Shown one piece after another: positions 923 to 2,045 of a DNA stretch of 50,347 nucleotides. The stretch covers positions 1 through 50,347 of the forward strand of contig JAUSCU010000018.1 of NCBI GenBank assembly GCA_030651065.1, read 5' to 3'. Both the position numbers and the translations under genes were made by a program. Positions within the stretch are counted from its first letter, which is position 1. Every line of letters starts with the position of its first letter. The notes beneath the pieces are model-generated. The model saw nothing but the letters and a program-made list of their open reading frames with translations. It was not told the origin of the DNA and ran no database searches. The DNA comes from Candidatus Omnitrophota bacterium (lineage in GTDB: Bacteria; Omnitrophota; Gorgyraeia; 1-14-0-20-64-10).

Positions 923-2045
923 AATCTCTTTCGTAGTGACAGCGCGGAGCGGCCGGGCGCGGACCGGCCGCCTGGCCCTGGCCCACGGCATCGTGGAGAC
1001 GCCGGCCTTCATGCCGGTCGGCACGCAGGGAACCGTGAAGACGCTCACTCCGCAGGACCTCAAGGCCTGCGGAGTGCAGATCCTGCTGAGCAACGTTTAT
1101 CATCTCTCCCTCCGGCCCGGGCTCAAAATCCTCGAGAAGGCCGGCGGGCTGCACCGGTTCATGGGTTGGGATGGGCCGATCCTGACCGATTCCGGCGGCT
1201 ACCAGGTTTTCAGCCTCGCGGCGAAACGCCGCATCGATGAGAAAGGGGTCACCTTCGCCTCCCACGTGGACGGCTCCGCCCACTCCCTGACGCCGGAAAA
1301 CGTGATCCAATTCGAGCTGGGGATCGGCGTGGATATCGCGGTGCCGCTGGACCATTGCGTGCAGTACCCCTGCGAGCGGGCGGAGGCGGAGGAGGCGCTG
1401 GAACGGACCACGCGGTGGGCGGAGCGGAGCAAGAAGGAGTTCATCCTTCGACAGGCTCAGGACGAACGGAAGACGCTGGTGTTCGGGATCGTGCAGGGGG
1501 CCATGGTCCCGGAGCTGCGGCGGCGATCAGCCCAGCAATTGACCGGCATCGGCTTTGACGGCTATTGCCTGGGCGGGTTCAGCGTGGGGGAGCCCAAGGC
1601 CCTGATGAACGAGCTGCTGCCGGCGGCGGCGGAGAACCTACCGGAAACCCAACCCCGGTATCTGATGGGGATGGGGGAGCCGATGGACCTCGTGGAGGCG
1701 GTGGAAGCCGGCGTGGATCTGTTCGACTGCGTGATCCCGACGCGGCACGGGCGCAATGGGGTGGCCTATACCTCCGAGGGAAAACTCAACCTCAAGAACG
1801 CCATCCACGCGGAGGACCCCCGCCCGCTGGACCCGGCCTGCCGGTGCGAGGTCTGCCGGACCCATTCCCGACTCTACATCCGCCATCTGTTCCAGGCGCA
1901 GGAGATCCTGGGGTTACGGCTTCTCTCATTCCATAACATTTGGTTCTATAGTACACTGATGGCCGAAATCCGGCGGGCGATCGGGGATGGAAGCCTTGGG
2001 TCCCTGCGCTCCAAGTTGTCGGTCGCGTATAACGGAGGAAAGTAA
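882..2045 (+). CDS. tgt: queuine tRNA-ribosyltransferase
   Basis: [49 protein letters not shown] and a C-terminal CxC...C..H zinc site are Tgt hallmarks. The ATG at 882 overlaps the upstream gene by 41 nt; an in-frame GTG at 936 is an alternative start. Confidence 0.9.
1445..1469 (+). repeat. copy of the CCTTCGACARGCTCAGG motif (ccttcgacaggctcaggacgaacgg) inside tgt
   Basis: 17/17 identical to the copy at 45479 and 16/17 to the copy at 42611. Read in-frame as L-R-Q-A-Q-D-E-R. Confidence 0.85.

Follow-up and report, generated by a model that had tools for sequence, protein, structure and literature searches.

A short repeat in four housekeeping genes

The DNA analysed here (the window) is a stretch of 50,347 nucleotides from a Candidatus Omnitrophota bacterium. 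It has a GC content of 60-66% and carries housekeeping genes, nearly all on the + strand. Its proteins match metagenome proteins best, at 91-97% identity; named Candidatus Omnitrophica follow at 52-66%. No tRNA or Rfam match was found in the window, and none of the 32 window open reading frames (ORFs) scanned encodes a transposase or RAYT. Four of the genes, queA, tgt, a transaldolase-like gene and a gene for a PHP-family phosphoesterase, each contain a copy of a 17-nt sequence, CCTTCGACARGCTCAGG. The repeat family that carries this 17-mer core is called family A below, and its covariance model R1. Copy coordinates (Table 1) refer to the window unless a locus label is given; L-numbers denote fetched DNA loci or contigs and P-numbers protein relatives.

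Table 1. Host genes and palindromic repeat copies in the window
Feature	Position	Strand	Core (match to 17-mer)	Sequence and reading	Support
queA, 3' part	3..413	+			Pfam Queuosine_synth
Degenerate family-A copy, queA loop	176..216	+	188-204 (15/17, two mismatches)	read ALGQAQDER	R1 E = 5e-4
tgt	882..2045	+			Pfam TGT; 1.9e-120 to Z. mobilis TGT
Family-A unit, tgt loop	1439..1469	+	1445-1461 (exact)	GTTCAT-CCTTCGACAGGCTCAGG-ACGAACGG; read ILRQAQDER	R1 E = 4e-14
Transaldolase-like gene	41922..43283	+			Pfam TAL_FSA
Family-A copy, transaldolase-like loop	42604..42634	+	42611-42627 (exact)	read ALRQAQGDR	R1 E = 2e-11
PHP-family phosphoesterase gene	45323..46159	+			Pfam and PDB searches
Family-A core, PHP phosphoesterase loop	45478..45495	+	45479-45495 (exact)	read GPSTGSGD, other frame	R1 E = 6e-6
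Palindrome of another family, riboflavin synthase gene (ribE)	48332..48364	+		CGGTACCGGGTACCC-gga-GGGTACCCGGTACCG, in frame; read TVPGTRRVPGTD	

An earlier note on this DNA had reported these four sites and held that three such 17-mers could not be chance; both statements are borne out. Shuffled versions of the window have 0.39 matches on average, and four were reached in none of 100. With correction for the look-elsewhere effect, the repeat is the sole 17-mer family in the window with at least three non-overlapping sites sharing one wildcard position; such a family arises in 0 of 100 order-2 Markov nulls and in 1 of 100 triplet-shuffle nulls. The next match after the four copies in an R1 scan of the window has E = 0.15. 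The recurrence of the 17-mer family is thus confirmed. An LRQAQ reading at 38081, in an SMC gene, was also considered; it agrees with the 13-nt core only when two mismatches are allowed, lies within R1 noise and is treated as chance.

The tgt and transaldolase-like copies had been described as similar over 25 nt; they agree at 21 of the 25 positions. Pfam and PDB searches place the hosts in four unrelated families (Queuosine_synth, TGT, TAL_FSA and PHP), in agreement with the note, which held that they are not paralogues. The shared unit is DNA and not a peptide, again as had been proposed. The first base of the motif falls on codon position 3 in queA, tgt and the transaldolase-like gene and on codon position 1 in the PHP gene (GPSTGSGD), and a third frame, the reverse-strand reading TLSLSKGER, is used in tgt of relatives. 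Five of the six reading frames of the family-A core are free of stop codons.

No reverse-complement arm of the 17-mer was found in the window by pattern search or R1, in agreement with the note, and no inverted doublet of family A is present in it. Three of the four copies are no better folded than shuffles: the copy at 42611 folds, that at 1445 folds partly and those at 188 and 45479 do not.

Repeat turnover in the tgt and queA loops

The window was compared with the syntenic relatives L241, L244 and L266 (from one groundwater sample), L242, L243, L256-L258 and L267. Between RSKKEF and LLFGIVQG, tgt of Omnitrophota has a hypervariable loop. It has about five residues in the shortest relatives, relative to which the window loop is longer by about six. 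In proteins P0001-P0075 (window equivalent 1436-1475) this loop holds at least five unrelated repeat families in relatives that are 79-92% identical. One is family A, read LRQAQ[DG]ER, with a doublet form ending in VRGELVEPR and the reverse reading TLSLSKGER; the others read GTVPFGDSP, KGSDP, SSEFKV/SDKLQV and PLPSGERGKG. The loop looks like a hot spot at which repeats are turned over, and it belongs to an essential enzyme of tRNA modification.

Family A itself takes several forms at this site. L241 has a doublet, 33 nt longer than the window sequence, of which the window unit is one half. L258 also carries the full doublet, L256 has the whole hairpin reversed at the same codon and L257 retains a decayed copy. 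The identity of the element is decoupled from the divergence of its host gene. Against the window, tgt of L258 has a nucleotide identity of 0.67 (0.50 at third codon positions), while its element agrees at 28 of 31 positions and its core at 17 of 17; tgt of L257 is closer (0.84, third positions 0.68), and its element agrees at 23 of 31.

In queA, the window copy is old and degenerate, with 15 of the 17 core bases and a 4-nt duplication in the tail. The same loop holds an intact copy in L256, a decayed one in L257, several copies in P0335 and, in L241, a doublet of a different palindromic repeat, the GGGGTCAGACCCC type.

The earlier note had suggested that orthologue alignments might reveal lineage-specific insertions of six to eight residues. 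This is only partly the case. Insertions are seen in the PHP protein (+5 residues), the transaldolase-like protein (+6 to +8) and, against the shortest Omnitrophota relatives, tgt (about +6). Clean insertions of this size were not found against distant PDB orthologues in tgt (+1 residue) or queA (-2 to -4), neither of which shows a net insertion. This is explained by the fact that both loops vary in length anyway; for these two genes such a comparison works only with close relatives.

Two further differences lie around these genes. The annotated queA of L258 is shortened (264 aa), with a strong family-A copy (4472-4512) just upstream of it and about 690 nt (5347-6036) uncalled after it; queA in this contig may be disrupted or mis-called. 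L256 contains an IS1595-family transposase gene and an MvaI/BcnI-type restriction-modification pair (2412-4860) just upstream of queA-tgt; these genes are absent from the window.

Empty and filled alleles in the PHP and transaldolase-like genes

Distant PHP homologues all have the loop AA-G-x-[DE]-LEI, which is the empty form. Insertions of the GPSTGSG type occur only in a clade of close relatives, in which filled and empty alleles interleave in the gene tree. Between GGCCGG and GATCTGG, L242 and L267 (92% nucleotide identity) have the empty allele, AGAR. L266 has CCCTTCGACAGGCTCAGG-GCAG, an addition of 18 nt; the window has the L266 form minus 3 nt, an addition of 15 nt (45478-45492) or five residues; L243 has a larger, expanded form that includes CCCTTCGACCCTTCGGCAAGCTCAGGGCTCAGGGCAGG. 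A metagenome scan with the PHP flanks for further alleles returned only a contig that was already known and two unrelated matches.

At the transaldolase-like loop, L244 (92% nucleotide identity) is 24 nt shorter than the window. Relatives read IGERQALLKGK, which implies that an 18-nt insert, CCCTTCGACAAGCTCAGG (42610-42627), sits within a GGT codon: ATCG^GTGATCGG. This copy forms a 10-bp hairpin with its flanks GATCGC and GTGATC. The protein has six to eight residues more than its orthologues at this point, and other relatives have a GSDP-type repeat in the same loop.

Read from the aligned sequences, copies in the source lineage have been gained, lost, doubled, flipped and decayed in what are probably variable surface loops of conserved genes. 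The insert sizes observed or implied are 15, 18, 24 and 33 nt, all multiples of three.

Other palindromic repeats in the same genes

Family A is not the only repeat involved. From queA to secD, the window and L241 (88% identical) differ by five indels of at least 30 nt, every one of them a palindromic repeat that L241 has and the window lacks. They lie at 2697, 2941, 3528, 4100 and 4991 of L241, in coding loops and gene junctions, and comprise three members of the GGGGTCAGACCCC family, the second family-A arm and CCCCGTTAGACC...GGTCTAACGGGG.

In ribE, the window carries a perfect palindrome of 15+15 nt with two KpnI-like sites in each arm. PDB orthologues are about 7-8 residues shorter there, and L266 has one arm only (21 nt fewer). 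In some relatives (P0027, P0063 and P0146), the loops of tgt and of the transaldolase-like protein are also occupied by VPGT-type readings. The full ribE palindrome has no match in viral contigs.

Distribution and anatomy of family A

Viral contigs and GTDB contigs with one genome per species each returned at least 120 stretches in scans with the 17-mer. The reversed 17-mer, which has the same composition, returned 11 viral stretches. Conservation reaches past the bases searched for, as gCCCTTCGACARGCTCAGGRCGAACGG. Among the GTDB loci listed, 74 of 120 have independent support, namely a second loop core within 150 nt or a conserved right flank. According to their sequence records, the supported loci come from Chloroflexota, alpha-, beta- and gamma-Proteobacteria, Actinomycetota, Cyanobacteria, Nitrospirota, Planctomycetota (an anammox planctomycete), Myxococcota, Bacteroidota, Desulfobacterota and Latescibacterota; the Proteobacteria include cultured Sphingomonas, Novosphingobium and Thalassotalea. 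A BLAST search of plasmids adds Comamonas megaplasmids (14 places in one replicon), Sphingobium chromids (mostly 6-8 places, overall 1-8) and plasmids of Moraxella osloensis.

Many bacteria carry the family in multiple copies, mostly outside genes, and phage contigs have it as well. Among the GTDB loci listed, 34% of the sites lie inside open frames of at least 200 codons, compared with 81% of random positions. The copies of Comamonas, Sphingobium and Moraxella are intergenic and unannotated wherever they were inspected.

Full palindromic versions, which the note had recommended looking for, occur as canonical hairpins in other genomes and viral contigs and as doublets in relatives. The canonical intergenic copies of L044, L172 and L098 fold at z = -5.6 to -7.9 against shuffles (UCCGUUCAUCCUUCGACAGGCUCAGGACGAACGGA is an example), and the hairpin copy in the viral contig L044 is identical over 31 nt to the tgt unit of the window. 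The four window 17-mers are copies of one widespread hairpin repeat. The note's tentative description of them as a dispersed, REP-like half element tolerated in coding loops is supported by this palindromic family in many genomes and by the tgt copy, which is half of the L241 doublet.

The hairpin has an 11-nt loop, TCGACARGCTC, in which TCGAC and GCTC do not change but the two bases between them do. It is closed by CCT/AGG and one further pair. Of 269 distinct instances, 83% have complementary bases at this further pair, which covaries (C-G 133, T-A 70, G-C 15). Pairing of the outer flanks lies more than 8 sd above partner-shuffled controls, and the outer stem is often CCGTTCRY...RCGAACGG; an unbroken series of at least three more pairs is seen in only about a quarter of copies.

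Sister types share the loop but have GCT/AGC or GGT/ACC as the clamp in place of CCT/AGG. They typically adjoin a CCT/AGG unit in inverted orientation, and such doublets occur in L241, L258, L259, L260, L001, L018, L070, L098 and others. Tandem expansions of partial units, with periods of 14, 21 and 24 nt, are also found among family-A loci. An expanded form with partly duplicated core ends, CCTTCGAC-CCTTCGRCARGCTCAGG-GCTCAGG, is seen in L243 (720-770) and in the unrelated genomes L064, L114, L078, L180, L190 and L237, which suggests a stereotyped product of slippage or templating.

Two groups of replicons show the surroundings of single copies. In Sphingobium chromids, a family-A doublet lies within a block of about 200 nt that has ends resembling terminal inverted repeats (TIRs), GAGCWTCGTGCYTTTAATC (L261 1085-1275). 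This block is absent in strain TomTYG72 (L268); at least some copies therefore travel in a carrier that resembles a miniature inverted-repeat transposable element, or MITE. In Moraxella osloensis plasmids (L260 1160-1236), whose host is AT-rich, a GC-rich doublet lies between narL and a gene for a histidine kinase and leads straight into a T-run, as an intrinsic terminator would. Seven plasmids have it in identical form; no empty site was found, all seven being filled.

Neither the window nor 11 loci that carry canonical copies gave a match at the Rfam gathering score. A literature search with DNA strings and peptide readings found no description of the repeat, which may have been described elsewhere; the family-A sequence is likewise missing from the main text of a catalogue of repetitive extragenic palindromes (REPs; PMC3733652), whose figures and supplements were outside the search. 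Lambda boxB, parS, the Tn3 inverted repeat, the T- and D-loop boxes of tRNA, attC, dif and oriT nic sites were considered and dropped, their likeness being short and partial. A REPtron-like arrangement was considered for L027, L098 and L234; the ORFs between the inverted copies there are phage structural genes or ordinary genes.

Comparison with known repeat systems

REPs and their assemblies, BIMEs and REPINs, are found in Enterobacteria and Pseudomonas and are mobilised by RAYTs (TnpA_REP Y1 transposases). Like them, family A as seen in other genomes is a short (about 20-40 nt), imperfect, multi-copy and mostly extragenic palindrome that forms inverted doublets of two types, comparable to the Y and Z REPs of BIMEs and the two REPs of a REPIN. 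The resemblance extends to stem-loop folding, which in family A is seen in the canonical copies L044, L172 and L098 and in flank complementarity above shuffled controls. REP copies also lie occasionally inside ORFs (PMC3733652).

In other respects family A differs from REPs. According to the same paper, an unpaired tetranucleotide, GTAG or CGTC, is conserved at one of the ends of REPs as a defining feature. The family-A consensus lacks GTAG, and CGTC is confined to the ACGAACGG subset, on the complementary strand and within the stem. REPs have a long stem and a loop of 4-5 nt, while family A has a large conserved loop on a very short invariant stem. Inverted doublets are found in other loci and relatives, and copy number and extragenic bias are likewise evident elsewhere (6-14 places in Sphingobium and Comamonas replicons); the source 50 kb has four copies, all genic. 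REP families are usually lineage-specific. Family A has the same 17-nt core in at least ten phyla and in phage contigs, a minimal insert of only 18 nt and no known transposase, which does not fit the lineage-specific REP/RAYT picture. Membership of a classical REP family is not shown, as the GTAG/CGTC tag is missing and no RAYT was seen in the scanned ORFs.

A parallel inside genes is offered by intragenic GTAG/CGTC REPs. As described in PMC3733652 (Di Nocera et al. 2013), these lie wholly within ORFs, often as dimers, and add residues in linkers or loops; CGTC REPs have no associated transposase, and tRNA-modification genes are among the hosts of intragenic REPs. Their build, as given there, comprises the tag, a stem of 7-9 bp and a loop of 4-5 nt, and family A is built differently.

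Rickettsia palindromic elements (RPEs) resemble family A in that they are inserted in frame at tolerated positions of conserved genes whose proteins are apparently functional, and also lie between genes. RPEs are about 100-150 bp long and confined to Rickettsia (Ogata et al. 2000, as reviewed in PMC2229807). In contrast, family A measures 18-33 nt and is pan-bacterial, and several repeat families compete for the same loops; in-frame insertion is thus shared, and length and taxonomic range are not.

Bacterial MITEs (Correia/NEMIS, ERIC, RUP) are also small non-autonomous repeats that are sometimes fused in frame to ORFs. They measure 70-300 bp and have TIRs and target-site duplications; coding family-A copies have neither, and their inserts are 15-18 nt. 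DNA uptake sequences (USS/DUS) of Pasteurellaceae and Neisseriaceae are short over-represented motifs that often lie in coding sequence at tolerant positions and in preferred frames, as family A does. They occur about once per kb, are species-specific and arise by point substitution. Family A occurs four times per 50 kb, appears as an indel against empty alleles and crosses phyla. Family A falls outside both classes.

Interpretation

The 17-mers are probably copies of a non-autonomous miniature palindromic repeat that behaves like REPs and BIMEs and is carried as a tolerated passenger in coding loops. The unit would consist of N-CCT, the 11-nt loop TCGACARGCTC and AGG-N', often followed by the 8-nt RCGAACGG with a complementary CCGTTCRY arm on the left. 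It would spread through a trans-acting enzyme encoded outside the window, or through a templated repair route, that recognises the single-stranded hairpin by its conserved loop. Insertions may arise at a high rate, and selection would retain only those copies that are in frame, free of stop codons and situated in structurally permissive loops; coding copies would have no function of their own. Such selection for frame, absence of stops and tolerance would make a few loops appear as hot spots for several unrelated palindromic repeat families.

A number of observations weigh against this interpretation. The PHP and transaldolase-like junctions show no sign of a target-site duplication, a TIR or a conserved target, and no transposase or RAYT was found among the 32 window ORFs or between the inverted copies in L027, L098 and L234. 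Among characterised transposable elements, none is known to be as small as an 18-nt mobile unit. A purely selfish, neutrally decaying sequence would not be expected to keep its loop nearly unchanged across phyla, which could point instead to a function for the host. The four copies all lie in genes, and the data for the source genome amount to 50 kb only. Finally, the interleaving of filled and empty PHP alleles could result from homologous recombination between strains and not from repeated gain and loss.

As to mechanism, the main rival dispenses with a dedicated enzyme: templated repair, template switching or short-patch gene conversion from other copies, aided by microhomology, would place the inserts and, by the same route, refresh existing copies. 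Inserts of 15-18 nt without target-site duplication agree with this, as do the decoupling of element identity from host divergence and the failure to find a transposase in the scanned window ORFs or between the inverted copies of three loci. Arms are gained and lost and partial units expanded (L243, L140, L116, and the single arm versus palindrome in ribE), and the target flanks resemble element flanks in the transaldolase-like gene (GTGATCGG and GCGAACGG), tgt (GCGTTC/GAGTTC) and queA (GACG(A/T)TCGCC). However, these microhomologies are short (4-8 nt) and were read post hoc, the PHP target is barely similar to the element flanks, and repair alone does not explain one sequence in at least ten phyla and in phages; we consider this rival unlikely, if deserving of attention. 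A functional nucleic-acid signal under selection (a protein-binding site, an mRNA structure or a target of small RNAs), for which the coding copies are themselves selected, is less likely still. It would account for the loop halves TTCGAC and GCTCA staying nearly invariant from phylum to phylum while the stems covary, for the core conserved at 17 of 17 positions in tgt of L258, whose third codon positions are saturated, and for the terminator-like T-runs after some intergenic copies. Against it stand the empty alleles in relatives with 92% nucleotide identity, the reversal of the same tgt site in L256 and its decay in L257, the replacement of family A by unrelated repeat families in the same loops, the poor folding of three window copies and the lack of an Rfam family match in the window and the 11 canonical loci. 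The sense-strand position of all four window copies, which also seems to favour a signal, is not significant, since nearly all genes there lie on that strand.

Derivation from, or mimicry of, the 5' end of 16S rRNA would explain the identity across phyla but is very improbable. The 3' half of the element, GGCTCAGGGCGAACG (e.g. window 1454-1468), agrees at 15 of 15 positions with about 20-34 of the Rfam RF00177 consensus (ggCuCAGggcGaaCG), just after the 27F primer site; L262 (E. coli rrsH) was also used in this comparison. The variants GACGAACG, GATGAACG and GGTGAACG, which are the common 16S variants at the same positions, also speak for such an origin. The likeness nevertheless ends at both edges of the 15-mer, the 18-nt unit in the PHP and transaldolase-like genes holds only 8 of those 15 bases, and a chance match is plausible given the many comparable known sequences (by a rough estimate, about 0.01-0.1). 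The 5' half of the element is loosely like the reverse complement of 16S at about 53-65. The resemblance of either half may be coincidence. Least credible of all is that the repeat is due to chance, codon-usage bias, convergence of the proteins or an assembly artefact. One identical pair of 17-mers in 50 kb of 63% GC would not be very surprising (an estimated 0.2-0.5 expected), but the triple with its 15/17 copy is not reached in the nulls. Different reading frames are used, and the same element occurs at the same sites, with variation, in independent assemblies from ENA, JGI, NCBI and Logan.

Implications

Under the favoured interpretation, in which the coding copies are tolerated passengers of a REP-like repeat, tiny repeat DNA can come and go inside conserved genes without breaking them, and much of the variation in loop length between orthologues in the source lineage would be turnover of repeat DNA, not ordinary indels. 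The identity of the core across phyla, the minimal insert of 18 nt and the turnover of several repeat families in the same loops are the main points of note. This combination of traits, with no known transposase, points to a trans-acting factor or a route of repair that phylogenetic profiling could reveal.

The peptides LRQAQGER, FDKLRTNG, SLSKGE, PSTGSG and VRGELVEPR, which appear in conserved proteins or in short 'hypothetical proteins', are translations of one DNA repeat. Such repeat-derived peptides should be masked in alignments and homology searches.

A bolder and rather doubtful proposal is that the 18-nt unit, which carries the asymmetric motif TTCGAC-NN-GCTCA in a clamp of 3-4 bp, is itself mobile throughout bacteria, moved without scars by machinery other than RAYTs and carried across phyla by phages, plasmids and MITE-like carriers. 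If true, a unit length divisible by three and five open frames would let the module colonise essential genes, and it would be the smallest known mobile DNA and a general source of variation in protein loop length.

The window also has short palindromes outside coding sequence. Its only sizeable intergenic region (13250-13750) contains near-perfect ones at 13317-13351, 13545-13571 and 13603-13645; these are unrelated to family A and could be terminator or operator sites.

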